DNA of 43,699 nt from Bacteroidota bacterium (lineage in GTDB: Bacteria; Bacteroidota; Ignavibacteria; Kapaibacteriales; UBA2268): NCBI GenBank assembly GCA_009777815.1, contig WRLB01000004.1:1-43699 (forward strand), written 5' to 3'. The translations under genes were made by a program, and so were the position numbers. Below are positions 5,303-40,531 of this stretch, in pieces; position 1 is the stretch's first letter; each line of letters begins with the position of its first letter. Under the pieces are notes generated by a model that was given only the letters and a program-made list of their open reading frames with translations, did no database searches and was not told where the DNA came from.

Positions 5303-7624
5303 ATGGGAAAAGGCAGTCAAGCCAAGGTCTATTTTGTGTTATACCTTGCCATTGTGGTGGAACTTCTGATCATTATCGTAGAGCGTGATGAGGCAGAAGA
5401 ACATCTACATAAAATGAACAACGAGACGATGAAAATCGTTGAGAGTATTTTATCTCAATTATATTCAGGTTCGGGTTCAGAAGGTATAAATACAAAACCC
5501 CAAGACGAGATTACTCTGCCCGCAGATGCCGATATGGCAGCAGTAAAAGAAATATTTGGTAGCGAATTGAAAACGTGGCGCAGATACCAAATAGACGTAG
5601 GTGTAACAGATGTAACACTTGCAATAAAGCGAAAAGAAGGTGAAAACGCAAAAGAATACGAGGAACGTTTATTCAATATGCTTTCACTTGCTAACGTAGA
5701 AGATTTAGAATACCAGATTTTCTTTATTCCTACGCAAAGCACAGATACTATGCCTTCTTTTCATTCAGATGACTATATCAGGACTAATGATATAGATTTT
5801 ATGTCTTTCCAGAATGGTCAAAGTTTTCCTGGTCCGAATGGTGAACCTTGGCAATTCATAGGAGCATATAAATTATCTATTGATAAGCAAGATGCATTTT
5901 CTAAATTAGACAGAAATAATCTGCTAACTACTTTAGATTTTGTGCCCGTGTATAAGCCCGTATCAAGAATCGGTAACGGTGCTTCACCGCGGGGACAAGA
6001 AGATTCTTCATTTTTCTATTCGGATATAAAAACGCGAGAATCGTTTGCGGCATCCGATGGCAAAGGGTCTCCTAAACGTTCTTTTTTAGTTGGTTTTGAA
6101 CCACCTGATAGAACAAAAGCAGGTCTATACAAACTACGTTTTGCGTCTAAAACTAATCGTATCCTCGGCGTAACAGTTTTAGAAGATGGACAAAGGCGCG
6201 GCTCCGATGAAGAAACAAAAGTTAATATCGGAACAGTGCAACTTACCGTTAAGGACTTGAAAAAAGTTGCCGTAGAGTTAAAGAAAAGGCATAATGAACT
6301 TGATAAAGTTCCAGCCGTAGATGACTTATCTAATGCATCAGGTTCAGAAATTGCAAGTAGATTAGATGCATTTAATGCAGCAATAGAAGATGCAAAAAGT
6401 AAAGCAGAAACAAGCGATAATTCTGCTGACTTAATTGCTAAAATAAGATTGTATGAATACATAGCACGGCTTGTAATTCCAGGACAATCTGCTAATTTTG
6501 ATCAAAATAGAAGCAATTTTGATATAAATGTTAGAGTCCAAACAGCAAAACCAAGCACTGCAAAACCATATGTTTCTATGCTCTCTGCTAATAAATGTTT
6601 CACAAATGCAAAACACGTATTAGAAATAGAAGCAGGTCCTTATAAGACAAATAATAAAGTAACAGGTCGGGTTCTTGGTTCTTATAATGCTGATATTACT
6701 TTCGTTCAAGATGGTGCTACGCCTGAACGAGATAAGCAATATAAACTGCGAGGAACTGTAAATAACGTGTTGCCTGCAGGTAAATATGTAATAGAAATTA
6801 CGCACGATATTGCAGGCAAGTTTGAAGTTTTTAGAGATACTTTGACCGTCTATGAGGCAGGTATCCAAGAAGAAACAAGAACTAATACAAGAGTCAGAAA
6901 CAGAATCGTATATGGAAAAATGCTCGCATTTGACCTATTTCCGAATTCTGGCAATGAAGTTCAAGCGAACCAATTTAAAACAATAGTTACGTTCGACGGC
7001 GGAAATGAACGAAGTGTTAATGGTTATAAAGTTACAAGAGATGCAGGAATTATGTGTAAAGCAGAATATAATACCGCAAGTGTAAAACTTGTATGGGTTC
7101 AACCTATTACTTACCAAGAGTTTGAACTTTATAGCACAAACGGCGACTTAAAATTAGAAGAACCATCAATATTTGGTGATATGATACCAAAATATTCAAG
7201 TAGTGGCAACAAAATAAAAATAGAAGCAACAGGATTACAAATACTTTCACCAGAAACAGGATTGGATGATAAAAATGCTGTATGCAGAATGCCAGAGCCA
7301 AAATTAAGAGATGGTTCTGCGGATGTAAATGGTTATAGTATATCAAGCCAGCCACAAATAGTAGGTGGCGATGCAAACAACGGATATATTATAGAATTAG
7401 AAATACAGAAAAATCCAGGTGTGAATGTTAAATCGGCAGAAGGTTCAATTACAATCCCTGTAACTGTTACAGCAACGCATCCTACAAATGGTAAAACATC
7501 TGTCGGAGAAAGTGAAATAATACTTAACATTAATTATACACAAAGTGCGGCTAGACCATCTTCTACACAACAAAAGAAAGGAACACCTGCTCCTAAAAAA
7601 GCACCTGCTCCTAAAAAGAAGTAA
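5303..7624 (+). CDS. Hypothetical single-pass membrane protein, possibly divergent GldM/PorM-like
   Basis: 773-aa ORF; N-terminal TM helix KVYFVLYLAIVVELLIII, helical region, then beta-rich (Ig-like) domains and a basic PAPKK tail. Confidence 0.6.
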   Translation: MGKGSQAKVYFVLYLAIVVELLIIIVERDEAEEHLHKMNNETMKIVESILSQLYSGSGSEGINTKPQDEITLPADADMAAVKEIFGSELKTWRRYQIDVGVTDVTLAIKRKEGENAKEYEERLFNMLSLANVEDLEYQIFFIPTQSTDTMPSFHSDDYIRTNDIDFMSFQNGQSFPGPNGEPWQFIGAYKLSIDKQDAFSKLDRNNLLTTLDFVPVYKPVSRIGNGASPRGQEDSSFFYSDIKTRESFAASDGKGSPKRSFLVGFEPPDRTKAGLYKLRFASKTNRILGVTVLEDGQRRGSDEETKVNIGTVQLTVKDLKKVAVELKKRHNELDKVPAVDDLSNASGSEIASRLDAFNAAIEDAKSKAETSDNSADLIAKIRLYEYIARLVIPGQSANFDQNRSNFDINVRVQTAKPSTAKPYVSMLSANKCFTNAKHVLEIEAGPYKTNNKVTGRVLGSYNADITFVQDGATPERDKQYKLRGTVNNVLPAGKYVIEITHDIAGKFEVFRDTLTVYEAGIQEETRTNTRVRNRIVYGKMLAFDLFPNSGNEVQANQFKTIVTFDGGNERSVNGYKVTRDAGIMCKAEYNTASVKLVWVQPITYQEFELYSTNGDLKLEEPSIFGDMIPKYSSSGNKIKIEATGLQILSPETGLDDKNAVCRMPEPKLRDGSADVNGYSISSQPQIVGGDANNGYIIELEIQKNPGVNVKSAEGSITIPVTVTATHPTNGKTSVGESEIILNINYTQSAARPSSTQQKKGTPAPKKAPAPKKK

Positions 7625-7665
7625 CTTTAATTTTTTATTAGAATAATATAAGGAAACATAAATTT

Positions 7666-9510
7666 ATGTTAATTAAAAAAAGAAACCTAATTCTTAGTGC
7701 AATATTAATCGGATTGATAGCGTTATTTATCACTCCTGCAAAAGCACAAGAATCCACCCAAAATAAAGTAAAATCTATTATGGGTAATTTTAGTAATATT
7801 CGTTTTTCTTCTGTGAACTATTATGAATTAAACGACAAAAGAGTTCGAGATTTAAAAGAAATTATTAAAAGCAAAATTGGTATGGAAGAAGATAATCAAG
7901 ATGATGGCAATCCAAACAATCAGATTATCGATTCTGCCAGATTAATGCCGATTGTCAATGAATTAAAAAGGTTAATTGCTCAAAATCCACAAAACAGAAC
8001 ATTACCTTTTGTCATTAGGCAAATGAATAGCGGTGTTGAACAATATGAAGAGTTAGTTGATTTGTTTGACCAAATTAATCCTACCGACCAAGAACAAAGG
8101 TTGGCTATGCAACTGGCGAATCCTGTTCAAAGAGCAAGGGCGGACATTTATAGAATGTTCATTATAACAACGCCCGTAGATAACCCTAACGACCTATACT
8201 ATGTGCCTGATATAATAGGACTCGTTCTATGTAAAGAACGAATAGATAAAGATGAGTTTGAAAACGAACTTATTAGTTATTACAATATAGTTATAGGTAA
8301 TTCGGTTGCTAATGAAAATAATATTATAACCTACAACCAACTTCAAAATTTAGTATATACGGATCCTAATACAAATGAGGATGTCAGTTTATACGACAAG
8401 TTAATAATGGAATATAGACAAAATAATTTTATTCCTGTCACTGCTGAAGTTAGAGGTATAGGCACAGAATTAGTGTTTATGAACACTTACGGAAAATCTA
8501 CTTCGTTAATATCTAATGAGAACGATATTGCCGAAGAAGACATCCAAAGTTTCATTAGAATCACTGAGGGACAACCATTTGATTACTTTAAAGAAAATGA
8601 AGTAATTGTAAGTCCTGATTATATAAGTTGGCGTAGATACCGAATAGATTATTATGAAGAAGAAGATTCATTGGGTAATATGGTTATGGTGCCAAGCGGC
8701 TTTGCTGCAAATTCTACGCTTCCATTATATGGAGTAGAACTTAAATTTGGGTTAGACGAAATAAACTATCCAAGTTTCTTCAGCGAAAGAATGATGGTTC
8801 GTGCCATTTGGGATAATATCAAATTAGGAGTCATATTACCTACTCCAGGCTGGTCTTCATTTACAAAAGATGTCTTTGATATAGACAGAAGATTCACATT
8901 CGGTGGATTAGGTATAACAGGTGCATTTGATTTTCCGATAAAAGTAATACCACAAAGCGGTGTATTCAGTATGAGTGCATCTTATTTGTTCGGTGATGCT
9001 AAAACTCCTTCATATAAAGATAGAAAAAAATTATATGATGAGGATGGCTTTAACTACATAGAAGACGACCTGTTTTACAACGACTACTTAATAAGATATA
9101 CTGCTCAAGCACACTATACTTTTGGTTTTGCTATAGACCAATCTTATTTATTTAGATTTGGAATAGGCGGAACTATATATGGTGCTGAAACTTGGCACGA
9201 CTACGAAGCAATAAACGATATGGACGAAGATATAGTCGTTTACAAGAAATCTGATAACGAAGCCGTAGGCGGTATATCTATGAAAGTAGAGTTTATGGCA
9301 AGGGATATTACTACACCTTTTGGCGTGTCGTTACAATACTTTGACGAGTCATTATTTGCTAATGCTTGGATACAAATACCGATAGTAGAAGATGCTTTCT
9401 TTTTAAGATTTGAAGCAAAAGGATGTGCTGCTGCTTTCAAAGAAACATTACATCCGTGGGAAAACAAAGCAGTTTTTATGCCGAGTGTACGACTTGTATT
9501 TAATTTTTAA
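7666..9510 (+). CDS. Hypothetical exported protein with predicted C-terminal outer-membrane beta-barrel
   Basis: Signal peptide ending AKA-Q; alternating aromatic strands in C-terminal half; ends RLVFNF (Bam-type terminal Phe). Confidence 0.65.
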   Translation: MLIKKRNLILSAILIGLIALFITPAKAQESTQNKVKSIMGNFSNIRFSSVNYYELNDKRVRDLKEIIKSKIGMEEDNQDDGNPNNQIIDSARLMPIVNELKRLIAQNPQNRTLPFVIRQMNSGVEQYEELVDLFDQINPTDQEQRLAMQLANPVQRARADIYRMFIITTPVDNPNDLYYVPDIIGLVLCKERIDKDEFENELISYYNIVIGNSVANENNIITYNQLQNLVYTDPNTNEDVSLYDKLIMEYRQNNFIPVTAEVRGIGTELVFMNTYGKSTSLISNENDIAEEDIQSFIRITEGQPFDYFKENEVIVSPDYISWRRYRIDYYEEEDSLGNMVMVPSGFAANSTLPLYGVELKFGLDEINYPSFFSERMMVRAIWDNIKLGVILPTPGWSSFTKDVFDIDRRFTFGGLGITGAFDFPIKVIPQSGVFSMSASYLFGDAKTPSYKDRKKLYDEDGFNYIEDDLFYNDYLIRYTAQAHYTFGFAIDQSYLFRFGIGGTIYGAETWHDYEAINDMDEDIVVYKKSDNEAVGGISMKVEFMARDITTPFGVSLQYFDESLFANAWIQIPIVEDAFFLRFEAKGCAAAFKETLHPWENKAVFMPSVRLVFNF

Positions 9511-9543
9511 TAACTATTTTTTAATAACAAAAAGATATAACAA

Positions 9544-11013
9544 ATGAATATAAACAAAATCATAACATCAATAATTACTATCTCAATACTATTTTTGTCA
9601 AGCATAGTAGTATATCCTCAGAGTTTTAGTTCTGACAAAGAGCAAAGAATATTAAACTCTTTAGAAACTTTGGATAATGAAATAGTAAAATACTTTCCCC
9701 GTTGGAAAGTATGTGAGCCAAACCTTCAATTGCATATATATAATATATTTAAGCAGGCGGGTTATCCAGCCGATAGGTTAAACTCAAGTAATATAGAAGT
9801 ATTAGCGGCACCAGGTCAATTTGATACCGAAAACGGCAATTATCAACTATTACTCGTCCAATGTGGCGATGCTGCAATGCAAACCTCAAAAATAAATCTT
9901 TACTTTACAGCACAATTAAGAAAAAAATTGTCAGGTGAAGAAAGTTATTCAGGCGTAGGAATAGGCAGAACATATTGCTATAAAGAAATTCCACCTGAAG
10001 CACCAGTTTCTACTTATCAAGCAGAAGCAATAATCAATTATTACCAGCCGACAGATGTCACGCACGCTATTTCACTTTCATTGTTTGAACAGGACTTAAA
10101 ACTCGGTGAAAGCGGCTTCTGGATAAAAAACGTGTTCGGAAATGATGATGCAGGATACCAATTCTGGGCATCGGGGCAAGTAGCAGTCCAACTGCAAAGA
10201 CCTTTATATGTAAATAAAGATATAGGAACAAGTAGAGCAATTCCTTATCTATTAAGTTTCTATATAGGTGGAGGCTACCGAATCTCATCTGGATTGCATC
10301 CCGAAGGAACAATGTTTTCATGGGTGCCAAAAAGAGTGCTAAACGCATCACAAAGCGGCGATTTTGTCGCAGGATTAGATTTCCATCTACCATTTGCTCC
10401 AGAATTCGGTATAAGTGCTTATGCAAGAGTTCCATTTGAATCGCCAAAGACAAAATCAATTAGATTAAGTGATTGGGGATATTACGATATAGAATCTTTA
10501 ATTAATGATGAGGAACGTGATGAAGTTATAGACACTTTGCCAGGTGACAAATATGGTAATACATATAATAATATAGTTCCTGTAATGCACTCATCAGGCA
10601 GAATATCATTGTTCTATAATTTATGGTTAGACAAGAAAAAACCAGAAAATTATTTTAGATTTGATTTAGGACTTAACTATGCCGAAACACGCGAAATGGC
10701 ATTAATTGGTGACCCTATTTCAACATCTAATGATTTAGAAGTCAGGGCAGATGATATCACGGGATTGCTAAATTATAAACCCGAAGGATTAGATTGGCTA
10801 TATTTCAAATTAGAATATAGAAACCAAGCAACTTGGCCCTTCGGAGCATCTTTGCAAATATCTAACCAGATATTGTTAACAAAAGTATGGGTTCCATTAT
10901 TAGGAAATTGGTTCTTGTTGGAGGCAAAATACTCTAATGTTTTACGTGATGCACGTCCATTTGAGTTAAAGAACTTTTTTATGATATCGCCTGTTATCAG
11001 GATAACGATATAG
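9544..11013 (+). CDS. Hypothetical exported protein, predicted beta-barrel, paralog of upstream gene
   Basis: Signal peptide; shares FGxDxxxY, PFGxSLQ, EAK and PxExKxxFM motifs with 7666..9510. Confidence 0.65.
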   Translation: MNINKIITSIITISILFLSSIVVYPQSFSSDKEQRILNSLETLDNEIVKYFPRWKVCEPNLQLHIYNIFKQAGYPADRLNSSNIEVLAAPGQFDTENGNYQLLLVQCGDAAMQTSKINLYFTAQLRKKLSGEESYSGVGIGRTYCYKEIPPEAPVSTYQAEAIINYYQPTDVTHAISLSLFEQDLKLGESGFWIKNVFGNDDAGYQFWASGQVAVQLQRPLYVNKDIGTSRAIPYLLSFYIGGGYRISSGLHPEGTMFSWVPKRVLNASQSGDFVAGLDFHLPFAPEFGISAYARVPFESPKTKSIRLSDWGYYDIESLINDEERDEVIDTLPGDKYGNTYNNIVPVMHSSGRISLFYNLWLDKKKPENYFRFDLGLNYAETREMALIGDPISTSNDLEVRADDITGLLNYKPEGLDWLYFKLEYRNQATWPFGASLQISNQILLTKVWVPLLGNWFLLEAKYSNVLRDARPFELKNFFMISPVIRITI

Positions 11014-11033
11014 TAAAAAACTACTTAAATTAT

Positions 11034-11062
11034 AAGGGAACGAGTAATCGTTCCCTTTTTTT
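11034..11062 (+). terminator. Rho-independent terminator of the three-gene operon
   Basis: AAGGGAACGA-GTAA-TCGTTCCCTT followed by T-run. Confidence 0.9.
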
Positions 11063-11252: not shown

Positions 11253-12524
11253 ATGAAAAGATTTTTAACTCTACTTACTCTAATTTTAGCAAGCCAAAAT
11301 GCAAATGCAGGTGTATTTGATGGCACACAAGGTGAAGGAACTGAAATTTCTCCCTATCTAATTTATAATATTACCGACTTAAAAGAAGTTGCAGATACTA
11401 TTAATCTAACAAATGTTTTTAATAGAAATTTTCATTTCAAACTAATGGCAGATATTACTACGCCCGTTGATTTTAGTATTGGACATAATAATCCACAAAT
11501 TACTCATCGTTTTAGCCATAGTTTTGATGGCAATATGTATAAGATTACAGTTGCAATAAATACATCGCAATATGTAGCATTATTTGGATTTATAGATAGT
11601 AATGGTGTTATTAAAAATTTAAGTGTAGATGGTGAAGTTATATCTGCAACAGGCGAGGTTGGGAGTATTGCAGGTAGGAATTATGGCATCATTCAAAATT
11701 GCACTAATTATGCATCAATAAACTCCTCACTTATTGCTCATGCTGGTGGAATTGTTGGTGTAAATTATGGCATCATTCAAAACTGCATTAACTACGGAGA
11801 AATTATAGGTAATTTATATGCAGGCGGGATTGTTGGTGTAATGTCTGCTGGTCTATTGTTTGGCTGCATAAATGCTGCTAATGTAACGGGAACAACTATT
11901 ACAGGTGGAATTGTTGGATATGCTACTGGCGCACAAGGTTACAACGATGGCGTTATTATTACTAATTGCCTAAACATTGGAACTATAATCTGCGATAATT
12001 ATGTAGGTGGTATTGTAGGACGGGCTGTAAGAACTGATAATAGAGACCCTGCTATGTTTATTCAGAATTGTGTTAATGCAGGTTTTATTAAAGGAACAGG
12101 TCAAAATAATGCTACCGCTGGGATTGTATGTATTTTTTTTGCTCCTTCTTCTGCTGGTGCTGATATCATTATATCTAACTCAATAAATACAGGAGTTGTA
12201 GAAGGGAATAATAATGTAAGTGCTATAATATCTTTCGTAGGGACATCTACATCACTCACACTTACAAATTGCCATTATGATAAGCAATTTTGCAATCATA
12301 AAGGTGTAAATGGCGTAGATATTATAGGACAAGCAGAAGGTCATTTAACAAGAAATATGGTTGGCAGAAAGTTAGCATCTTTGCTCGGCGATATTGATTG
12401 GACCTATGTAGAAAGAGCAACTTTAATAGAATGTCTTTATCCACAACTAAAAGTATTAGACAACACAGATGCAAGCAAAGTTGGTGCCACACCAATATTT
12501 TTATATGATGGGATAAAAGATTAA
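11253..12524 (+). CDS. Secreted GLUG-motif (beta-helix) protein, possibly C-terminally truncated
   Basis: Signal peptide (ANA-G), GxGTxxxPYLI, FDGNxxKI, repeated GGIVG / NCxNxGxI units; no T9SS CTD at the end. Confidence 0.75.
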   Translation: MKRFLTLLTLILASQNANAGVFDGTQGEGTEISPYLIYNITDLKEVADTINLTNVFNRNFHFKLMADITTPVDFSIGHNNPQITHRFSHSFDGNMYKITVAINTSQYVALFGFIDSNGVIKNLSVDGEVISATGEVGSIAGRNYGIIQNCTNYASINSSLIAHAGGIVGVNYGIIQNCINYGEIIGNLYAGGIVGVMSAGLLFGCINAANVTGTTITGGIVGYATGAQGYNDGVIITNCLNIGTIICDNYVGGIVGRAVRTDNRDPAMFIQNCVNAGFIKGTGQNNATAGIVCIFFAPSSAGADIIISNSINTGVVEGNNNVSAIISFVGTSTSLTLTNCHYDKQFCNHKGVNGVDIIGQAEGHLTRNMVGRKLASLLGDIDWTYVERATLIECLYPQLKVLDNTDASKVGATPIFLYDGIKD

Positions 12525-18711: not shown

Positions 18712-21700
18712 ATGATTAAAAAATCAGTTATTTTCATGTTTTTGATGGGCATGTTTGCTGCATCAAATTTGGCTTATAGCCAAGCAGTATCCGATACGTT
18801 TGTAAGAAGTATTGGATATACCCCCCCTAGTGGATGGACTCAAACTTATAAAGAGTTCAAGGGCAATTTGTCTTACGATGGCTTTATGGTTCGGGGGGAT
18901 CTAACAGGTACTAATAGTAATAGAAGTATGTTTGCCGCCTATTTTTGTGGTGGAATTTCAGGTGAAGGTTATGGTGCAAACGACACCAGTGCCGCTGTAA
19001 CCTGCCACTTTCCAGTAATAATGGAATCTAATAGGAGTTATACTCTTATTACTTATACACAATCAGAAATAGGGCTAAATGTTCCATGCGACATTATTAA
19101 AATTAGAATTCCTGTTTGGATGGACCCTGGACGTGGAGGTCCTGATTGTCCATATTTTGCATGCACTTGGGAGTTAGGTAGCTTTGGCCAAATATCTATG
19201 AGCGGTGTTACTTGGCCATCAAATTATCAAAATCGTAATCCGACCCCAATAAGGATTTACTTTAAGAATGGTGCCGAAATTAATGGTTTTGACACTATTT
19301 GGAACAGAGGCAACCAACCCGTAGATATATCACCAAGTAGTGGTTGGGTAAATGTTTTTGATGGATATTGGGATCCAGATTATCCTAATTATAATGGTCA
19401 ATTGGTATGGAATGGTATTTCTGATACTGCTACGCTTGTATTAGAATTTGAAACTCCATTTGCTTATACAGGAGGTCATTTAAGTGTAGTATTTGAAAAT
19501 CGAGTGGGTGTTACTGCCGGTGCTCCTTCATCTAATGTAATGGGACCTGATTGGGAACCATATTGGATTTATAGATTTAAATCTTTTCTATCTGTTCCTA
19601 CTACTACTACCGACAACACTGCTCCATATTATGGACCTTTAATAAGTTACTCTGACCATATGTTTGTGTCATATTGGTTTATGTATGATGATGGAACCAG
19701 AGTTTATGCTGGTGGTGCTACTCCTGCTGTTTTTGGACCTGAGCCGCCAAGAACGTGGGTAGTGAATTGGAATGGTGGTGGTGTCCAAGTTGGCGGAGGA
19801 CAAGGTGATATAAGTAATTATACTTTCTTTGCACCATTTAGTTATGCAGGAGTCAAAGGCCCCGGGGGTTCTCTTTTTGGTACAGGTACTCCTCCTGGTG
19901 GTCCTTGTCAATTTAATGCATCAATCCGTCCTAATATGCTATTAACAGGTAAGTTACAAACATTAGGCAATCCTGTTTATGCAACATCCACGGTAAATTC
20001 AGGAAGAGAGACAAGGTATGTAATGTCTGATATGAATATAAATATGGATGGGACAGGTTTTAAACTTAGATTAAAACGTCTAAAATTCACAATAGACGGC
20101 ACAAAACCAGGTATATATCCAACAGCAAGATTATATTATAGTCCAACGGGACTTTATAGTGATACACTTTTTTTAGGTTCTGTTCAGACCACTGCAGGTA
20201 ATAATGAACTTATTGTTACAACTCCGCATATACTTGAAAATGGGGACAACAATTTCATACTTGCTTACGATGTGCCAGAGCCAACAGTATCTAATGGTAT
20301 AGGTTGTAATGACCCGTTAGTATTCAATCTAACAGGTTATGTTTTGGGGAATAGAGAAAATGGTTCTTTAGTAGGTGATACACAAGACCACGAATTCATA
20401 GCAAGTCATACTTCCACAAAATATATGCAGTTTGCAGAGCCAATATTAGTATTAGGAGGTGCTGAAGGTCGGATTACAGACAAACGTTTTTGTATAGAAG
20501 AAACGGGCGACTTTATGAGCATTTCTATAATAGGTAATCTATATGGTGGTTACATATTAGGAAGATATTTTGGTTTCACTTGGGATAGGTCCACAGATGG
20601 TGGTCTGACTTGGGAAACAGGTGTGTCTACTGATTCAATATACGTTTTCCCAAAAGATTATACTTATAATGCTTATAGAGGTTCATTAGTTGGTCCTTCA
20701 AATTGTTCAAGCAATGCTTATTTTGTTTATAACATTATATGGGAAAATCAAAATACAGGTGTTTCTATAGATTACACTGGTACCCTAACTACGCCTGAAT
20801 TAGAAGCGGTAAGTCCGGGTTCAATATTAACATTTACGGCTACGCCTGAATTAGGTAATAATTCTATACCTGCTTATAATTGGCAATATACGTTAGATGG
20901 CGGTCTAACTTGGGGCGAGATAGTAGGTGCAACATCACAAGAATTGGATTACACAATCCCAGTAGGAATGTTTGGTAATGTCGGAGTTAGAGTCCGATTA
21001 AGCGCTCAAAGACCAGAATGTAATTGCCAAAATATAATAAATAGTAATGTTTTCTACTTTAATGTTATAGGCGGAGAAATTGGATTTATTTACGTTAATC
21101 AGCCGCCTGCGAATTTGCATCTATGTCCTAATGGCAGATTAGAACTAATGGTATCATATTCAGGCAGAATAGATGCAACAAGAAGTTGCTGGCAAAAAGA
21201 TGGCGTAGATTTACCATATACAGACAGAGTTTTAACTATAAATGGTTTAAATTTAAGCCATGCAGGTGTATATCGCTATAAAGCCGTAGATACTGCTACC
21301 GTTTTAATAAATGGAGATTATGTAACAATAACCGACAATATTAGTTATTCAAATGTTTGCAATGTAAATATCGTCCAACCATTAGAAATATATTATGTGA
21401 GCAACGCTCAGAACTACGCTGTGCCTGGTCAAAGCGTAGGATTTAAAGTTTATTCTTCTTTTGAAGGAGCAAATGGCGAGCAATTTAATGAAAACTCTAA
21501 TATTGGTTTCCAATGGTATAGGCATCAATCAAATGGCGGTGATGTAAAAATTGATGACAACTATTATTTCAAAGGGGCGCGTTCTAATGCTTTAGTTATC
21601 GTAAATATGCCTGAAAAAGGCGATAATATGTATGAACAACTTTATACTTTTGATGGCGCTTACTATTATTTAGAAATTACTGGTCCTTGTGGCACAGCAA

Positions 21701-22716
21701 ATTCGCGAACTACTCCTATATTTGTAAATCCTGGTGAAGGTATTGACTTTATTAAAAACAATACTAATTTTACAATTTGCGAGAACGATGTAAATGATTT
21801 TACTGCTACTTTTGAAGTTCAAGTGCAAACTCCAGACCTTGATTTAGTTAAATATCAGTGGTATATTGATGGAGTTGCTGCCGAAGATGGTCCAAATGTA
21901 GAAGGAAGCAAAACGCCAAAACTTACATTACATAATCCTAACTTATCAATAAAAACATACTGTGTAGTTTCTGCATTTGTTAATTACTATTTTTTAGATA
22001 TTAGTAGTGAAGAAGCAGAAATAGAAATTACTGATATGGAATTATGGCAGGTAGTGTCGCCAACTGCTGATTTGACATCAACGGAAATAAGAGGTTTCCT
22101 TGAGAATAATGGTGGTATATCAATAAGTATAAGGATAGAAACAAACAAGCCATCAAGCAGTTTTGTATTTGATATCAGTGTTAGTAATTCTGAAGAAACT
22201 ATTCCAATTTATACGGGAACAATTCCTGCAGGAACTTATTTTCAGTCGCAATTTGCTATTGACTATTCAGTAATAGGCGATGATTTACAAAAGATATTAA
22301 ATCTTTTAGAATATGAAGACACTGCCGTTCTAAAAATGAGTGTTACTAACGAGTGTGGTAGCGTTGTTAATGTAGAATGGAATATCATTAAGGTTGAAGA
22401 TGACGAGGAAGAAGAGGATGGTCCTGTAATAAGTAGTATTAAAGGAAATGCTATCGGCGATTTTTCATTAACTCCTAATCCTACAACTGGTATAATCAAT
22501 GTGGCATATAATTCAAATACAGAGATGGAAGTTTCTTTGCAATTATGCAACACAGCAGGAAGCACTATTTTCACATTACACGAAGGAATGGCAAATATTG
22601 GTGAAAATAAATTTGAATTTGATTTAGCAAAACTCAATCTTGCTGCAGGCACTTACACCTTAAAGATTGCAAATAAAAAAGGTTTTATAACCAAACAATT
22701 TGTATTTGTTAGGTAG
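18712..22716 (+). CDS. Large secreted multi-domain protein with Ig-like repeats and T9SS type-A sorting domain
   Basis: Signal peptide (AYS-Q), Ig-like units (YQWY, WQxxxDGGLTW), acidic linker, CTD TPNPT...GTYTLKI...TKQFVFVR. Confidence 0.85.
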   Translation: MIKKSVIFMFLMGMFAASNLAYSQAVSDTFVRSIGYTPPSGWTQTYKEFKGNLSYDGFMVRGDLTGTNSNRSMFAAYFCGGISGEGYGANDTSAAVTCHFPVIMESNRSYTLITYTQSEIGLNVPCDIIKIRIPVWMDPGRGGPDCPYFACTWELGSFGQISMSGVTWPSNYQNRNPTPIRIYFKNGAEINGFDTIWNRGNQPVDISPSSGWVNVFDGYWDPDYPNYNGQLVWNGISDTATLVLEFETPFAYTGGHLSVVFENRVGVTAGAPSSNVMGPDWEPYWIYRFKSFLSVPTTTTDNTAPYYGPLISYSDHMFVSYWFMYDDGTRVYAGGATPAVFGPEPPRTWVVNWNGGGVQVGGGQGDISNYTFFAPFSYAGVKGPGGSLFGTGTPPGGPCQFNASIRPNMLLTGKLQTLGNPVYATSTVNSGRETRYVMSDMNINMDGTGFKLRLKRLKFTIDGTKPGIYPTARLYYSPTGLYSDTLFLGSVQTTAGNNELIVTTPHILENGDNNFILAYDVPEPTVSNGIGCNDPLVFNLTGYVLGNRENGSLVGDTQDHEFIASHTSTKYMQFAEPILVLGGAEGRITDKRFCIEETGDFMSISIIGNLYGGYILGRYFGFTWDRSTDGGLTWETGVSTDSIYVFPKDYTYNAYRGSLVGPSNCSSNAYFVYNIIWENQNTGVSIDYTGTLTTPELEAVSPGSILTFTATPELGNNSIPAYNWQYTLDGGLTWGEIVGATSQELDYTIPVGMFGNVGVRVRLSAQRPECNCQNIINSNVFYFNVIGGEIGFIYVNQPPANLHLCPNGRLELMVSYSGRIDATRSCWQKDGVDLPYTDRVLTINGLNLSHAGVYRYKAVDTATVLINGDYVTITDNISYSNVCNVNIVQPLEIYYVSNAQNYAVPGQSVGFKVYSSFEGANGEQFNENSNIGFQWYRHQSNGGDVKIDDNYYFKGARSNALVIVNMPEKGDNMYEQLYTFDGAYYYLEITGPCGTANSRTTPIFVNPGEGIDFIKNNTNFTICENDVNDFTATFEVQVQTPDLDLVKYQWYIDGVAAEDGPNVEGSKTPKLTLHNPNLSIKTYCVVSAFVNYYFLDISSEEAEIEITDMELWQVVSPTADLTSTEIRGFLENNGGISISIRIETNKPSSSFVFDISVSNSEETIPIYTGTIPAGTYFQSQFAIDYSVIGDDLQKILNLLEYEDTAVLKMSVTNECGSVVNVEWNIIKVEDDEEEEDGPVISSIKGNAIGDFSLTPNPTTGIINVAYNSNTEMEVSLQLCNTAGSTIFTLHEGMANIGENKFEFDLAKLNLAAGTYTLKIANKKGFITKQFVFVR

Positions 22717-28720: not shown

Positions 28721-30301
28721 ATGGATATGAAATTATTAAATATTAAAGAAGCAAGTGTATGGGCTACAAATTGGACGGAGAAAAATATAACTCCGTCTAA
28801 TATCTCTTATCTTATACAATATGGGCGTATAAAAAAGTTCGGTAATAATGGCACTACGCAAGTTTCAGAAGCAGATTTAATAGAGTATTATGGAGAATAT
28901 AGCGTTTGTAGAGAAGCGTTTTTTAAAGAAAAATTAGGTGAAAATTTAAATTGGGCATTGTCTTTTGAGCAGTATAAAGAAGCAGAAACAACAAAACATA
29001 TTCATCGTTTGCATCCGTATAAGGGTAAGTTTATTCCGCAATTAGTAGAATATTTTTTAGATAATCATACTGATAATTTTAAAACGCAAACTTATTTTAA
29101 GTCAGGTGATATTGTTTTAGATCCATTTTCAGGGAGCGGAACAACGATGGTGCAAGCGTGTGAATTAGGTATGAATGCAATAGGAGTTGATGTTTCGGCG
29201 TTTAATACTTTGATTGCAAATTGCAAAATTGCTCGCTATGATATTGCAGATGTTTTAGATGAAATAAAACATATTACTTTAAGTTTAGAAAAATTTGTTA
29301 ATGATTTTAATGTTATTGATTTTGAATATAAACTTTTACAAGAATTAAACACATTTAATAGTAAATACTTCACTGTTCCTGATTATAAATTTAATGTTAG
29401 AAAAGGCAAAATTGATGAAAAAGAATATGGATTAGAAAAAGAAAATCAATTTTTGCCAACTTATGAAAAACTAATAGCGAAATACAACATAAAATTAAAA
29501 CAAGAAAAAAACGAAACATTTTTAGATAAGTGGTATTCGCAACATATTAGAAATGAAATTGACTTTGTTTTTGAAAAAATAAAAAATATACAAAACACTA
29601 ATACAAAAAAAATAATTAGTATAATTTTAAGTAGAACAATTCGTAGTTGTAGAAGCACAACACACGCTGATTTAGGAACACTTTTAGAGCCAATTACTAC
29701 CACTTATTATTGCAAAAAACACGGAAAATTATGTAAGCCATTGTTCTCTATTTTGAAATGGTGGAAAACTTATTCTAAAGATACAATTAAAAGATTGCAA
29801 CAATTTGACAAATTAAGAACAAATACATTTCAACTTTGTTTGACAGGAGATAGCAGGAATATTGATATTTTAGAGCAAGTAAAAAAGAAAAATGCTGTGT
29901 TCGGAAGGTTATTAGAAGAACAAAAAATAAAAGGAATTTTTTCTTCGCCGCCTTATGTTGGCTTGATTGATTATCACGAACAACACGCTTACGCCTACGA
30001 TTTATTTGGTTTTGAAAGAAATGATGAGTTAGAAATTGGTCCGCTTTTTAGAGGACAAAAAAAAGATGCACAGCAAAGTTATATACAAGGAATTTCTGAT
30101 GTGCTAAATAATTGCAAGCGTTTTTTAGTAGATGATTATGATATATTTCTTGTAGCAAACGATAAAAATAATATGTATCCAACTATTGCAGAAAATACAG
30201 GAATGCAAATTATAAATCAATTTCATCGTCCCGTATTAAACAGAACAGAAAAAGATAAAACCGCATATTCAGAAACAATATTTCATTTGAAAAAGAAGTA
30301 A
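28721..30301 (+). CDS. Type II R-M amino-methyltransferase (likely N4-cytosine) with N-terminal HTH
   Basis: HPYKGKFIPQL, motif I DPFSGSGT before motif IV SPPY; adjacent to endonuclease gene. Confidence 0.9.
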   Translation: MDMKLLNIKEASVWATNWTEKNITPSNISYLIQYGRIKKFGNNGTTQVSEADLIEYYGEYSVCREAFFKEKLGENLNWALSFEQYKEAETTKHIHRLHPYKGKFIPQLVEYFLDNHTDNFKTQTYFKSGDIVLDPFSGSGTTMVQACELGMNAIGVDVSAFNTLIANCKIARYDIADVLDEIKHITLSLEKFVNDFNVIDFEYKLLQELNTFNSKYFTVPDYKFNVRKGKIDEKEYGLEKENQFLPTYEKLIAKYNIKLKQEKNETFLDKWYSQHIRNEIDFVFEKIKNIQNTNTKKIISIILSRTIRSCRSTTHADLGTLLEPITTTYYCKKHGKLCKPLFSILKWWKTYSKDTIKRLQQFDKLRTNTFQLCLTGDSRNIDILEQVKKKNAVFGRLLEEQKIKGIFSSPPYVGLIDYHEQHAYAYDLFGFERNDELEIGPLFRGQKKDAQQSYIQGISDVLNNCKRFLVDDYDIFLVANDKNNMYPTIAENTGMQIINQFHRPVLNRTEKDKTAYSETIFHLKKK

Positions 30302-30303
30302 TT

Positions 30304-31077
30304 ATGGCATTAACAAAAGAACAAAAACAAGATATACAAGAAGTAATTAAAACTTGTTTAAGAAATAAATTCAAAAATTATAACCCTGAAAGCAATAATA
30401 TGCCTTTTCATTTTCGTTTGCTTGGGCGAGATAGGATGGCTTTATATTCGTTTATTCAATCGTTAAATACAACTTTTGGCACGTCCATTTTTGAACCTGT
30501 TGCTGTTGCTTTGGCTAAAAATAATTTTGTAAAAGTAGCATCACAATATATTGTAGGTGATACAATTTTTGAAAATTGTCAACAAAGTATTCAACATATT
30601 ATAAATCAACTCACTGTTGGTGCTACTCCCGATAAAAATAAAGAAATTGAAATATTAAAGAAATCATTAAAAGGAAATAAAAATCAAATAAAAACTATTA
30701 AAGTTGATTTATTTGTTGAAAATAAAAAAGGAGAAATGTTTCTATTTGATTTAAAAACTGCTAAACCAAATATTAGTAATTTTAAAGATTTTAAGCGGAC
30801 ATTATTAGAATGGGCTGGTATTGCTTTAACGCAAGATAGCAACAAAAATATAAATACTTTGGTTGCTATACCTTACAATCCATATCATCCAGAACCTTAT
30901 GCTCGTTGGACGATGAAAGGAATGCTTGATTTAGAAAAAGAATTAAAAGTTGCTGAAGAGTTTTGGGATTTTCTTGGTGGCGAAGGGGCATATCAGGAAT
31001 TACTTGACTGCTTTGAAAAAGCAGGCATAGAATTAAGAACCGAAATAGATAATTATTTTAATAAATTTAATTACTAA
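30304..31077 (+). CDS. TdeIII/MjaII-family type II restriction endonuclease
   Basis: MPFHFRLLG, SLNTTFGTSIFE, VDL...DLKTAKPN, IPYNPY, EEFWDFLGG; starts 2 nt after MTase stop. Confidence 0.85.
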   Translation: MALTKEQKQDIQEVIKTCLRNKFKNYNPESNNMPFHFRLLGRDRMALYSFIQSLNTTFGTSIFEPVAVALAKNNFVKVASQYIVGDTIFENCQQSIQHIINQLTVGATPDKNKEIEILKKSLKGNKNQIKTIKVDLFVENKKGEMFLFDLKTAKPNISNFKDFKRTLLEWAGIALTQDSNKNINTLVAIPYNPYHPEPYARWTMKGMLDLEKELKVAEEFWDFLGGEGAYQELLDCFEKAGIELRTEIDNYFNKFNY

Positions 31078-37895: not shown

Positions 37896-38258
37896 CTATA
37901 TAACATTTTCTAAATGTGTAATATCAGGTAAATTAGTTATCATATCTATGGCTATAAAATCTATTCTGCATTCTTGGTTTGTGATATTATGTTTTAGCAT
38001 ATAGCCATTAGCAGCAAAACGAATACTGCGTTTTTTCTTTTCAGTAATAGATAAAAGTGGATGTCCGAAATTATGATTAGTTCTTGTTTTTACTTCAATA
38101 AAAACAAGAACATTGTTTTTATCGGTAGCAATTATATCTATCTCACCTTCTTTTCCAAAATGGAAGTTCTTTTCAATAATGCTATATCCTTTATCTATCA
38201 GATACTTTTCAGCAATACTTTCTCCTTTATTTCCGACATTTTTATTATGTGTATTCAT
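37896..38258 (-). CDS. yraN: YraN (UPF0102) family endonuclease-like protein
   Basis: G..GE..A..YL...GY, GEIDII, VFIEVKTR, RIDFIAI. Confidence 0.92.
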   Translation of the reverse strand: MNTHNKNVGNKGESIAEKYLIDKGYSIIEKNFHFGKEGEIDIIATDKNNVLVFIEVKTRTNHNFGHPLLSITEKKKRSIRFAANGYMLKHNITNQECRIDFIAIDMITNLPDITHLENVI

Positions 38259-40531
38259 TACATTTTAACGACTTTTTGTATTGATTTTGCTTTGTGGTTA
38301 TGTAGTTTTATAAAGTAAGTGCCTGTAGTAAGTTTAGATAAATCTATTTGTTTTTCTGTATCTATTGATGATAAATAAACTAACCTTCCTGTTTCGTCAT
38401 AAACATTTATAATATAAGGCATTTCTGTTGTATTTTCTACTTGTATATTCGCATTTCCGTTTGTTATTGGATTAGGAAAAATGTTAAATACGAAATCTTG
38501 TTCATCGTCTTCTATACCTAATGTTAGATGCTTCATTATTTCGTGTGCATTAATTTTGCCCCATCCCCAGATAGTAGATTTATTTTCTTTAGCATTTCCT
38601 GTATATTCGTCATTAATTGCTGTGATTCGCAATATATCTTTAATTTCAGAATGCGTAAGTTTTGGATTTACTTCGAGCATAAGTGCAACAATTCCTGTTA
38701 CCATTGGCGAAGACATAGATGTTCCTTGTGCGGCAATAAATTCGTATGTAGCGTTAGGAGTTTTGTCTGTAACATATAAATCCTTATAAGCATTAGAGAT
38801 ACCTACAAAACTATGAAGTGCAGAATACAATATACTGCCAGGTGCTGTAATATCAGGTTTAATTCTTCCGTCAGTTAATGGACCTTTAGAACTGAAATTT
38901 GCAATGTTATTAATAGTTTGCGAAGTTGGAGTTTTGTTGCCTGCAAATGGAACTATTGTATCTCGTGTAACATAAGCACCAACAGATATTACTTCCTCTT
39001 CTGTTCCCGGTGAACTAATTGTATAATTTGCATCGGGTTCAATTCCTTGAGTTTTAACTATAAAAGGATGACCATGCGGAGATGATTGATTCCAACAATG
39101 TATTATACCTGAATCTGAAAATATTCTAACAGACATATATGCATCCGCATTCTCTATACCAGATACATAAATGGGGATTATTCTACCGACAATTAAAGGT
39201 TTTTTATTTGTTATATATGGCTCCAAATAAGATTCATAAGCCCACACGTGAACATAAAACCTTCTTGCAGGATTATTAAAAGAAGATATCATTGTATCTA
39301 ATAATAATCCCGAAGAACCTACGGTAGATATAGTAAAAGAATCTGTTAATATCTCAAAATCTTTATCTAAAATTTTAGTTGTTATAGAAAACTCTTTGTC
39401 TATTTCGCCCATCGCATAAAAATAAGCGTAACCCCACTCTAATGTAGATAAAAGGCATTCTACAGATTTAATTGTGTTAGAAAAATTATTTTCAAGATGT
39501 GCTTTTGTATTTCCTACATTTCCTGCTGAAGCAACTAATATTCTGCCTTCAGGATTTTCATTAACCATTTCTTTTATCATTATTCCTGCAGAATGTGTAC
39601 CGTCATTAGGGTATCCTATTGTTCCAAAACTCATATTAATAACTATAGGTTTGCCAACAGAGTCCGCATAACTGAATAAATAATCAATACCTTCAATATA
39701 AGTAGGGCTGTCGTACTTACTAGTTGCATAACTATGTATACCTAATTCAACGATAGCAATATCTGACTTTGTTGCTATTCCCGAATGTGTATACTTTTGT
39801 CCTTCAACTTTTGAACCCGCTGCAATAGCAAGAACATGTGTCCCATGATACTCAGTATTTGAACTATAATCTGAAATAAATTTAATGTCAAAGTCATGAA
39901 GGTCAGTTAAAAGGAAACCAACATCAGAATTTTTAGGTGGCGGAAAAAATTCCAACAAGATATCATCATCAATATATGCATAAGGCACCCAAGCCCGCTT
40001 AATGCGTCCCTTTCCGTTTTCATCTGAAAACATTGGATGAGTAAAATCAAAACCATAATCTAAAACGCCAACAATTACACCTTCACCAAAATAAGAACGC
40101 TCAAGGTCTATACCTTGATGAACCTTATCTACATTAGAAGATTGCAATGCCTTATCTAAAAGTGGCTGTGGCTGTTTTGCAATCTCAATAAGTTCTACAA
40201 AATTAAAAGCAGATAATTGCTCTATTTTATCTATCGGAACAGACAGCAAAGCAACGCTTTTAGTTTTTACTAACTCTTTGCAACCAAGATTTTCAACTTG
40301 CAATTTGGAATAATTTTCGTTTACTTTTATATAAAGTTTAGTATATTCAATTCCATTTTTGGATTGCAAAAAGTAATCTTTTGATTTGATTTTATTATTT
40401 AAGATACTTTTATTTTCGTGCATTTTTAGGAACACATAAGTATCTGCGGTCAGTTTATTATTATAGTTTTCTGCGAACACATTGGCAGAAATCCAAACTG
40501 ATAAAATTAAGATAATAAATATATTTTTCAT
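38258..40531 (-). CDS. S8 subtilisin-like serine protease with T9SS type-A sorting domain
   Basis: Signal peptide; triad VLDYG, HGTHV, GTSMS; KPDITAPG; CTD IFPNP...GTYFIKL...QKVVKM. Confidence 0.93.
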   Translation of the reverse strand: MKNIFIILILSVWISANVFAENYNNKLTADTYVFLKMHENKSILNNKIKSKDYFLQSKNGIEYTKLYIKVNENYSKLQVENLGCKELVKTKSVALLSVPIDKIEQLSAFNFVELIEIAKQPQPLLDKALQSSNVDKVHQGIDLERSYFGEGVIVGVLDYGFDFTHPMFSDENGKGRIKRAWVPYAYIDDDILLEFFPPPKNSDVGFLLTDLHDFDIKFISDYSSNTEYHGTHVLAIAAGSKVEGQKYTHSGIATKSDIAIVELGIHSYATSKYDSPTYIEGIDYLFSYADSVGKPIVINMSFGTIGYPNDGTHSAGIMIKEMVNENPEGRILVASAGNVGNTKAHLENNFSNTIKSVECLLSTLEWGYAYFYAMGEIDKEFSITTKILDKDFEILTDSFTISTVGSSGLLLDTMISSFNNPARRFYVHVWAYESYLEPYITNKKPLIVGRIIPIYVSGIENADAYMSVRIFSDSGIIHCWNQSSPHGHPFIVKTQGIEPDANYTISSPGTEEEVISVGAYVTRDTIVPFAGNKTPTSQTINNIANFSSKGPLTDGRIKPDITAPGSILYSALHSFVGISNAYKDLYVTDKTPNATYEFIAAQGTSMSSPMVTGIVALMLEVNPKLTHSEIKDILRITAINDEYTGNAKENKSTIWGWGKINAHEIMKHLTLGIEDDEQDFVFNIFPNPITNGNANIQVENTTEMPYIINVYDETGRLVYLSSIDTEKQIDLSKLTTGTYFIKLHNHKAKSIQKVVKM

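Follow-up and report, generated by a model that had tools for sequence, protein, structure and literature searches.

A conserved gene cassette of Kapaibacteriales encodes parts of a candidate trans-envelope complex

A three-gene unit on the plus strand

This study concerns three genes of a Bacteroidota bacterium of the order Kapaibacteriales (class Ignavibacteria), found in a stretch of 43,699 nucleotides of contig WRLB01000004.1 (assembly GCA_009777815.1) that we analysed as a whole and refer to as the window. The genes, all on the plus strand, are g1 (5303-7624, 773 aa), g2 (7666-9510, 614 aa) and g3 (9544-11013, 489 aa), as given by open reading frame (ORF) calls. They are separated by gaps of 41 nt (g1/g2) and 33 nt (g2/g3), and in this genome the unit is closed by a terminator-like hairpin on the same strand (11034-11057), with a 10-bp stem containing five G-C pairs and a T run. 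None of the three proteins has a Pfam or NCBIfam match above noise. The co-orientation, the lack of annotation, the gaps and the strong terminator had all been described in an initial annotation of this DNA, and the ORF calls, the family scans and the hairpin bear them out. We infer a lineage-specific envelope machine of five parts, to which g1, g2 and g3 contribute three; the other two are a small membrane protein and a protein with vWA and OmpA-like domains.

Conservation of the cassette and its fourth gene

Relatives of g1 are encoded in 193 species genomes (one genome scanned per species), and 80 loci from these species were kept, their ORFs being called by a simple longest-ORF script. The order g1-g2-g3 is maintained in all 63 of the related loci that have at least 3600 nt downstream. 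Where at least 5200 nt are available downstream (59 loci), the fourth gene is without exception one for a protein of ~448 aa in which Pfam finds VWA and OmpA domains, hereafter vWA-OmpA. The flanks of the cassette show no conservation across the related loci. Genome counts here and below describe samples of kin and are not independent observations; given the 193 species genomes and the unbroken order, the conservation of the cassette is far beyond chance.

The genes thus co-occur in other genomes, in the same order at every checkable locus, and this conserved cassette matches no already characterised system, in keeping with the initial annotation, which had taken the genes for an undescribed machine. 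Literature searches on Kapabacteria/Ignavibacteria type IX secretion, GldM/PorM and Chloroherpeton gliding brought up no description of the cassette.

The record titles of the g1 loci name Kapabacteria or Kapaibacterium, Ignavibacteria, Chlorobiota and Chloroherpeton, together with some plainly wrong taxa. Many cassette-bearing metagenome-assembled genomes (MAGs; L005, L010, L013, L017, L020 and others) are titled 'uncultured Hyphomicrobiales', 'Chloroflexota' or 'Desulfobulbaceae', with the gene order unchanged, and these titles look unreliable.

The genome studied here is the exception as regards the fourth gene. Its vWA-OmpA orthologue stands alone on a contig of ~7 kb (C86:2130-3572, E 1.5e-99). 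The protein has a lipobox-like start, read by eye as are all signal peptides and topologies given below, and is a predicted peptidoglycan binder. A Pal-like score and a score for the PorE model are both confined to its OmpA domain, the latter reaching 80 bits against a cut-off of 600. The cassette appears broken in this genome, perhaps by the insertion of a member of an expanded protein family after the g3 terminator.

Directly past the terminator lies the gene for a 423-aa secreted protein with repeated G-G-I-V-G-type motifs (11253-12524, plus strand), which has no Pfam match at 1e-3. It belongs to a hugely expanded family: when compared by BLASTP with every genome ORF that reaches 60 aa, it has some 50 other matches at E<=1e-3, many of them 30-54% identical over the full length, and one copy (C40:8700-10682) adjoins a second g1-like paralogue. 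We considered the 423-aa gene as a member of the cassette and rejected it: its ~50 paralogues are scattered, and vWA-OmpA occupies its place in 59/59 relatives.

g1 is a predicted membrane stalk protein

From its sequence g1 is a predicted N-in single-pass inner-membrane protein, with a basic N-terminus of 7-8 residues, one membrane helix and about 720 periplasmic residues. The short basic N-terminus followed by a transmembrane helix reads as the initial annotation had claimed. The helix (codons 9-27; 5327-5383, plus strand) is the best-conserved part of the protein: across 48 aligned homologues the mean share of the majority residue is 0.97 over residues 9-27, 0.89 over residues 28-72 and 0.54 over residues 73-773. 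Y10, F11, Y14, L15 and E20 within the helix, and R28 and D29, are invariant (48/48), and K8 is kept in 47/48. The membrane Tyr and the intramembrane Glu to which the initial annotation had drawn attention are therefore conserved, the latter being E20. The helix motif recurs in 75 of the 76 family ORFs across the 80 loci.

The AlphaFold2 model of g1 (predicted local distance difference test score, pLDDT, 79.6; predicted template modelling score, pTM, 0.46) begins with a long helix (residues 5-54), followed by a mixed alpha/beta part made of two regions (67-315) and a helical hairpin (316-391). The C-terminal half holds three Ig-like beta-sandwiches (about 406-746) and ends in a disordered basic tail. 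The description of the periplasmic region as helical and beta-rich thus agrees with the alpha/beta regions, hairpin and Ig-like domains of the model. GldM/PorM does not appear among the fold matches listed for the whole model, which bear on residues ~417-604.

Of 8000 candidates scored, 538 are homologues of g1 at E<=0.001. The 120 best of these are equal to g1 in length and show either 56-100% or 36-43% identity. The named homologues among the matches listed are all hypothetical proteins, save one with the JGI label 'CheC', which we take as a mis-annotation. The search of the g1 profile against all PDB sequences gave one chance match only (E 0.94), and the best score in the ESM Atlas, 0.76, is uninformative. 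When the helix module alone is searched against 1.84 billion representative proteins, 197 match at E<=0.001 and 107 at E<=1e-10; the module stands at the very N-terminus in nearly every match listed, in proteins of about 200, 480-560, 600-650 and 720-830 aa. Judged by these searches, the family defined by this module is narrow and lineage-specific.

g2 and g3 as predicted outer-membrane barrels

Both g2 and g3 have signal-peptide-like starts, in agreement with the initial annotation, and g2 ends in Phe. Behind its signal peptide g2 has a large N-terminal part, and its C-terminal region is homologous to the g3 barrel. The likeness between the two proteins is confined to the C-terminal ~145 residues (26% identity, E 2e-5; E 3.8e-6 and 0.0099 when hidden Markov models (HMMs) of g2 and g3 are matched against each other). 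The barrels had been called paralogous; the term is justified for this shared region and not for the remainder of the two proteins.

The AlphaFold2 model of g3 (pLDDT 82.0, pTM 0.65) consists of an N-terminal alpha/beta periplasmic domain (~31-165) and a beta-barrel (~163-489). The leading Foldseek matches of this model are all outer-membrane barrels, two of them at E<=0.001. In VIA-align, residues 163-489 align best with the FadL homologue 3dwo_X (Z 13.6, 234 aligned residues, root-mean-square deviation 4.8), followed by FadL itself (1t16_A, Z 12.3), FadL-like chains of Bacteroidota BAM complexes (about Z 12) and chain F of the translocon entry 6h3i (type IX secretion system, T9SS; Z 11.7), which we take to be PorV. 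As modelled, g3 is a FadL-like outer-membrane barrel.

That g2 is also an outer-membrane barrel is suggested by its signal peptide, by its terminal Phe and by the C-terminal region that it has in common with g3. The barrel-like C-termini of the initial annotation are thus seen in a model for g3 and would extend to g2 through this common region. In the ESM Atlas the nearest clusters to g2 are unnamed proteins of ~450 aa (0.92 and 0.91), barrel families appearing only at 0.85-0.86. Against the PorV model NF033710 and the PorP/SprF model TIGR03519 neither g2 nor g3 gives a match at E<=1, and NCBIfam returns noise only.

A small membrane protein co-occurs with the g1 helix

Across the phylum, the g1 profile finds full-length matches only in the window's order (8/8 genomes, including this one) and one additional family. 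Elsewhere in the class it matches the helix only, in ORFs of 200-440 aa, and in the loci read each of these short g1-like genes is directly preceded by a gene for a small membrane protein, here called the partner. Its first helix contains a conserved Tyr-x-Gly-Ala and its second a conserved Glu, and these two helices are followed by a coiled-coil tail that yields only weak coiled-coil-type matches. The Tyr, Gly, Ala and Glu are invariant in 14/14 sequences, and the buried Glu is present in 21/21 aligned sequences.

Among 101 class genomes the helix module occurs in 47 and the partner in 49, and the families that have them are exactly identical. All 47 module-bearing genomes have the partner, and the two extra partner matches are weak and lie in frames with stops. 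For 29 of the 68 g1-module genes in these genomes, a partner gene is located on the same strand at most 1500 nt upstream. Loci L115, L116 and L117 carry on one strand, with short gaps, the partner (235-282 aa), a g1-like gene (534-557 aa), two barrel genes and vWA-OmpA. L118 presents the partner, the g1-like gene and two barrels, and then a gene on the opposite strand; L121 has the same first four genes up to the end of the locus, and a second partner-module pair directly upstream. L119 comprises a g1-like gene and two barrels with neither partner nor anchor adjacent, and L120 the second type of pair only.

Each genome of the window's order has partner copies away from g1, and these are of several types. 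Those of the 'a' type (~445-510 aa) possess two additional N-terminal helices; the one in this genome is a 446-aa protein encoded at C1:30536-31876. The 'b'-type, ~325 aa in the genomes of the order, was not found in this 73%-complete genome. The 'c'-type partner (~270 aa) is followed in relatives by a second, ~490-aa module protein; here the 'c' partner (C7:10015-10842, minus strand) and the ~490-aa module protein (C40:7065-8558, minus strand) are on separate contigs. By BLAST, partners encoded in an operon score higher with 'a' (61-77 bits) than with 'c' (<=45 bits) in 5/5 cases, so that the C1 protein is likely the partner of g1 in this genome; the 'c'-type pairs of other families best-match 'c' in 2/2. 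The initial annotation had called for a search for a GldL- or MotA-like partner elsewhere, and a weakly GldL-like one has in this way been found: it lies upstream of g1-like genes in relatives, is unlinked here and carries an invariant buried Glu.

Every genome of the order has this second pair. It also occurs in L111 (8151-10408, minus strand) and L120 (4655-7069, minus strand), where a ~265-aa 'c' partner is followed by a protein of ~490-515 aa. The module protein of the pair carries a diverged copy of the g1 helix, and the buried Glu is absent in the L111 copy. A complex model of four copies of partner residues 285-385 with two copies of g1 residues 1-60 scored 0.00 in both runs; these were run without controls, and the result does not bear on binding either way.

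In another family of the class a short-form operon is found (L081, 61-9054, minus strand; L083, 5931-11021, plus strand; L084, 4013-12314, plus strand). Its order is a gene for a DUF2254-like membrane protein (~520 aa), the partner (160-180 aa), a g1-like gene (200 aa), a secreted protein of ~360 aa and then two to three secreted proteins of ~460-520 aa, some of which show a weak g2-like C-terminus. This operon has the appearance of a cassette that was split or reduced.

g1 is not recognised as a GldM

The initial annotation had proposed that g1 is related to GldM/PorM. For comparison we took canonical gldK-gldL-gldM loci from Bacteroidia, which supplied 10 GldM and 10 GldL sequences. g1 gives no match at E<=1 to TIGR03517 or to the Pfam GldM models, a search of this genome with PF12081 returned nothing, and TIGR03517 matches 0/5 genomes of the order and 5/5 Bacteroidia positive controls. 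No GldM domain was found at E<=1 in eight g1-like proteins. Pfam likewise detected neither a GldM nor a GldL domain in the ~490-560-aa g1-like proteins and their partners, with weak PKD/filamin hints in one of them. Reciprocal searches with g1 and GldM HMMs gave no cross-match in the top 45.

At residue level, R9 and Y17 of GldM are invariant in 10/10 sequences. The g1 homologues carry no Arg ahead of the helix, where their consensus is G/A-G-K (the Lys being K8), and the residue correspondence comes from an unsupported by-eye alignment. The K-x5-YL spacing on which the initial annotation had drawn is indeed present in g1 and in the fetched GldM sequences; the broader family of this helix does not preserve it. 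With no family-model, PDB-sequence or supported hhalign match and no Arg9 counterpart, the proposed kinship finds no support at this level: sequence comparison does not place g1 in the GldM family.

A suggestive likeness between the partner and GldL

Models of the two-helix cores of the partner and of GldL were searched against about 3650 sequences, comprising both families and all ORFs of this genome. The best non-GldL match of the GldL N-terminal HMM is a 'c' partner (E 0.0054), and the best outside match of the partner HMM is a GldL (E 0.054), with 8 of the 10 GldL sequences in its top 45. Both helices are covered by the alignments, in which the family Tyr and Glu fall on Tyr13 and Glu49 of GldL. 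In hhalign the trimmed cores of the two families align over 56-62 columns at P 0.0012, three cross-controls giving P 0.24-0.56. This signal is suggestive of either remote kinship or convergence.

Type IX secretion genes in the order and the class

Two proteins of the window carry the T9SS sorting domain PF18962, one encoded at 18712-22716 and the other, a subtilase, at 38258-40531 (minus strand). The claim that the window encodes two cargo proteins with a T9SS C-terminal domain (CTD) is thereby confirmed, and a scan of the window genes upholds the reported absence of an adjacent GldL/K/N-like gene.

Within the order, SprA is found in 5/5 genomes and PorV in 5/5, four of these over the cut-off. 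GldL was detected in 0/8 genomes, GldM in 0/5 and GldN in 0/21; PorP reaches its cut-off in 0/21 and GldK in 0/5, the sub-threshold GldK matches being of a kind also found in unrelated controls. The GldM, GldN and PorP models each match 5/5 Bacteroidia controls. No canonical GldL over cut-off was found among the class genomes of the phylum sample.

The phylogenetic profile of the cassette family differs from that of the translocon: among the 101 sampled class genomes the family is present in 47 and SprA in 100, and therefore SprA exists in the class without the cassette. Eight module-less genomes, from eight families, give no match to the partner even at E<=1, and GldL and GldM alignments searched at E<=5 in five class genomes, four of them among these eight, returned nothing real. 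The profile against T9SS genes thus ties the order to SprA and PorV with no GldK, GldL, GldM or GldN over cut-off, and it weakens the initial suggestion that the cassette is a non-canonical T9SS motor. A role of the cassette in T9SS is possible. In size the 'c' pair is GldL/GldM-like and it has the best GldL score, which would put it at least on a par with g1 as a motor candidate.

A candidate ion-coupled trans-envelope complex

We hold with moderate confidence that the cassette and the partner specify an undescribed, probably ion-coupled trans-envelope complex. Its parts would be the small membrane protein, in whose last two helices a buried Glu and a G-A motif accompany an invariant Tyr; g1; g2; g3; and vWA-OmpA. 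The small membrane protein and the g1 helix would form an ion-conducting core in the inner membrane, comparable to GldL-GldM, MotA-MotB, ExbB-ExbD and TolQ-TolR. Gain and loss of protons by the buried Glu residues could move the long g1 stalk, the Ig-like end of which would meet the periplasmic domains of the g2 and g3 barrels, and the OmpA domain would pin the assembly to the cell wall. Both candidate core subunits, the partner and g1, carry a conserved buried Glu. The pattern of 5:2 motors, in which the two genes are adjacent and that of the multi-helix subunit comes first, is seen in relatives (29/68; L115-L118, L121) and not in the window.

Several observations weigh against this interpretation, in particular against a likeness to GldLM. 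The genome is an incomplete assembly, a MAG of 1.94 Mb in 121 contigs with 72.9% completeness. In the window's order the partner stands beside the long g1 form in 0/21 cases, and the pairing of the two rests on orthology. In hhalign, g1 against the 10-sequence GldM alignment gives a chance match only; against the GldM N-termini 5-6 columns around the Tyr are aligned, the best local alignment pairing GldM Y17 (10/10) with g1 Y14 (48/48) at P 0.11. For the trimmed partner and GldL cores the hhalign probability is 19%, below usual significance; the full-length partner and GldL alignments show nothing in the membrane region, and NCBIfam GldL (TIGR03513) matches 0/14 partner-family members at E<=10. 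The whole-model fold search of g1 (Foldseek against the PDB; VIA-align) returned generic Ig/filamin/cadherin-type matches only, at residues ~417-604, with the first 400 residues barely covered. Buried Glu residues, finally, can serve helix packing or oligomerisation without ion flow.

An alternative is a complex that transduces no energy. g1 would then be a passive scaffold or ruler that links the inner membrane with the barrels and, by way of vWA-OmpA, with the cell wall, and so serves envelope integrity or the organisation of the outer membrane; its helix would be for oligomerisation only. We think this unlikely, even though an OmpA-like peptidoglycan anchor and an outer-membrane barrel are present, no ATPase and no recognised motor family is found, and g1 and the partner are unlinked in the window's order. 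Against it, the membrane helix of g1 is more constrained than the periplasmic part (0.97 against 0.54), with an invariant charged residue inside the bilayer. Furthermore, a partner with an invariant buried Glu strictly co-occurs and is co-operonic in relatives, a gene pattern that belongs to stator-type motors more than to scaffolds.

A different alternative accepts the motor and assigns the whole set to protein secretion. The cassette and partner would be the lineage's type IX secretion core, with the partner and g1 for GldL and GldM, g2 and g3 for the PorP/PorV-type barrels and vWA-OmpA for PorE, and would drive SprA-dependent secretion of the CTD proteins of the window and of other parts of the genome. 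The order has SprA (5/5) and PorV (4/5 over cut-off) and the window has its two CTD cargo proteins, GldL, GldM and GldN are undetected in the order with no PorP or GldK over cut-off, the partner is weakly GldL-like, the g3 fold class is shared with the 6h3i chain (Z 11.7), and the PorE model gives the vWA-OmpA protein a score confined to its OmpA domain. We nevertheless consider this assignment quite improbable: SprA is present in 100/101 class genomes and module plus partner in only 47, the eight module-less genomes of this SprA-bearing class have no partner match at E<=1, the 'c' partner with the ~490-aa module protein is the better motor candidate by size and GldL score, and no cassette gene adjoins a T9SS gene in any locus read. 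Also unlikely in our estimate is a broader version, in which the small membrane protein and g1 would be a previously unrecognised branch or convergent analogue of GldLM-type motors that, with the barrels and vWA-OmpA, replaces the missing GldKLMN/PorP/PorE core. In Kapabacteria and some of the Ignavibacteria it would pass proton-motive force on to the outer membrane, where type IX secretion or movement over surfaces would use it.

Surface motility or adhesion by itself, on the analogy of the Myxococcus Agl-Glt gliding apparatus, appears very improbable. In the Agl-Glt apparatus a proton motor in the inner membrane is combined with proteins that span the periplasm, with paralogous outer-membrane barrels and with a vWA-domain protein, and the component list of the cassette runs parallel to it; in addition, the record titles of L041, L069 and L077 name Chloroherpeton, a gliding green sulfur bacterium. 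Against the analogy, the vWA protein has a peptidoglycan-binding OmpA domain and is thus predicted to be periplasmic rather than at the surface, no adhesin or track protein is linked, the MAG record titles are unreliable (several say Hyphomicrobiales), and the lineages are uncultured.

Comparison with known energy-transfer machines

Among the closest known systems, GldL-GldM runs parallel in gene order: in relatives a small membrane protein precedes a single-pass protein with a long periplasmic part that, as modelled for g1, ends in Ig-like domains. The partner resembles GldL in its two helices, conserved Tyr, buried Glu and cytoplasmic coiled-coil tail. In a preprint on the GldLM motor (bioRxiv 10.1101/2022.01.28.478170), its stoichiometry is given as GldL5GldM2 and Arg9 of the F. 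johnsoniae GldM as pairing with Glu49 of GldL. g1 differs in having no Arg for GldL Glu49 and a buried Glu of its own instead, so that, relative to GldLM-type motors, the buried acidic residue would be on both subunits and the Arg-Glu pair is absent. It also differs in its size of 773 aa, with alpha/beta domains ahead of the Ig string, and the partner of the window's order in its two extra N-terminal helices and its unlinked gene. The operon neighbours of the cassette are two FadL-like barrels and vWA-OmpA and not GldK/GldN, and the GldL and GldM family models match neither the partner nor g1. The lineage of the cassette has SprA, PorV and CTD cargo.

With respect to the outer-membrane side of type IX secretion, that is PorP/SprF-PorE and the FadL-like PorV, the barrel fold of g3 is alike and the OmpA-like domain of the fourth gene resembles that of PorE. 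The differences are that g2 and g3 match neither the PorP nor the PorV model and have large N-terminal periplasmic domains, and that in the anchor a vWA domain replaces the other domains of PorE.

Tol-Pal and TonB-ExbBD are ion-driven inner-membrane units that are coupled through a periplasm-spanning protein to outer-membrane proteins, with an OmpA-like anchor. The cassette resembles them in the buried acidic residue in the inner membrane, the single-pass protein that would cross the periplasm, the outer-membrane barrel partners and the OmpA-type peptidoglycan-binding protein. It differs from them in that no MotA/ExbB/TolQ or ExbD/TolR family match is found, in a stalk of Ig-like domains in place of a Pro-rich or helical linker, in the vWA domain of the anchor, and in barrels that are FadL-like and have no TonB-dependent plug.

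To our knowledge, there are few kinds of machine through which energy passes between the inner and the outer membrane: Ton, Tol, the stators of flagella, Agl-Glt and GldLM. The cassette and its partner are a compact, strictly conserved five-gene candidate for a further one, with a charge layout in the membrane core unlike those known, in a lineage that keeps the type IX translocon without recognisable motor or ring genes. Were the coupling real, it would show how such motors diversify and make the powering of SprA-type secretion outside Bacteroidia testable. Even a passive complex would give names and context to four families recorded as hypothetical proteins, of which g1 alone is encoded in the 193 species genomes.

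Other features of the window

Upstream of g1 lies the gene for RpoC, and a gene for a small PAS protein on the opposite strand sits between the two. Further downstream, positions 28721-31077 (plus strand) hold a DNA methylase gene (N6_N4_Mtase) beside one for a TdeIII-type restriction endonuclease. This is the most AT-rich stretch of the window (GC 0.255-0.272 versus about 0.30-0.35 elsewhere), and on its composition and gene content it is probably an acquired restriction-modification island.

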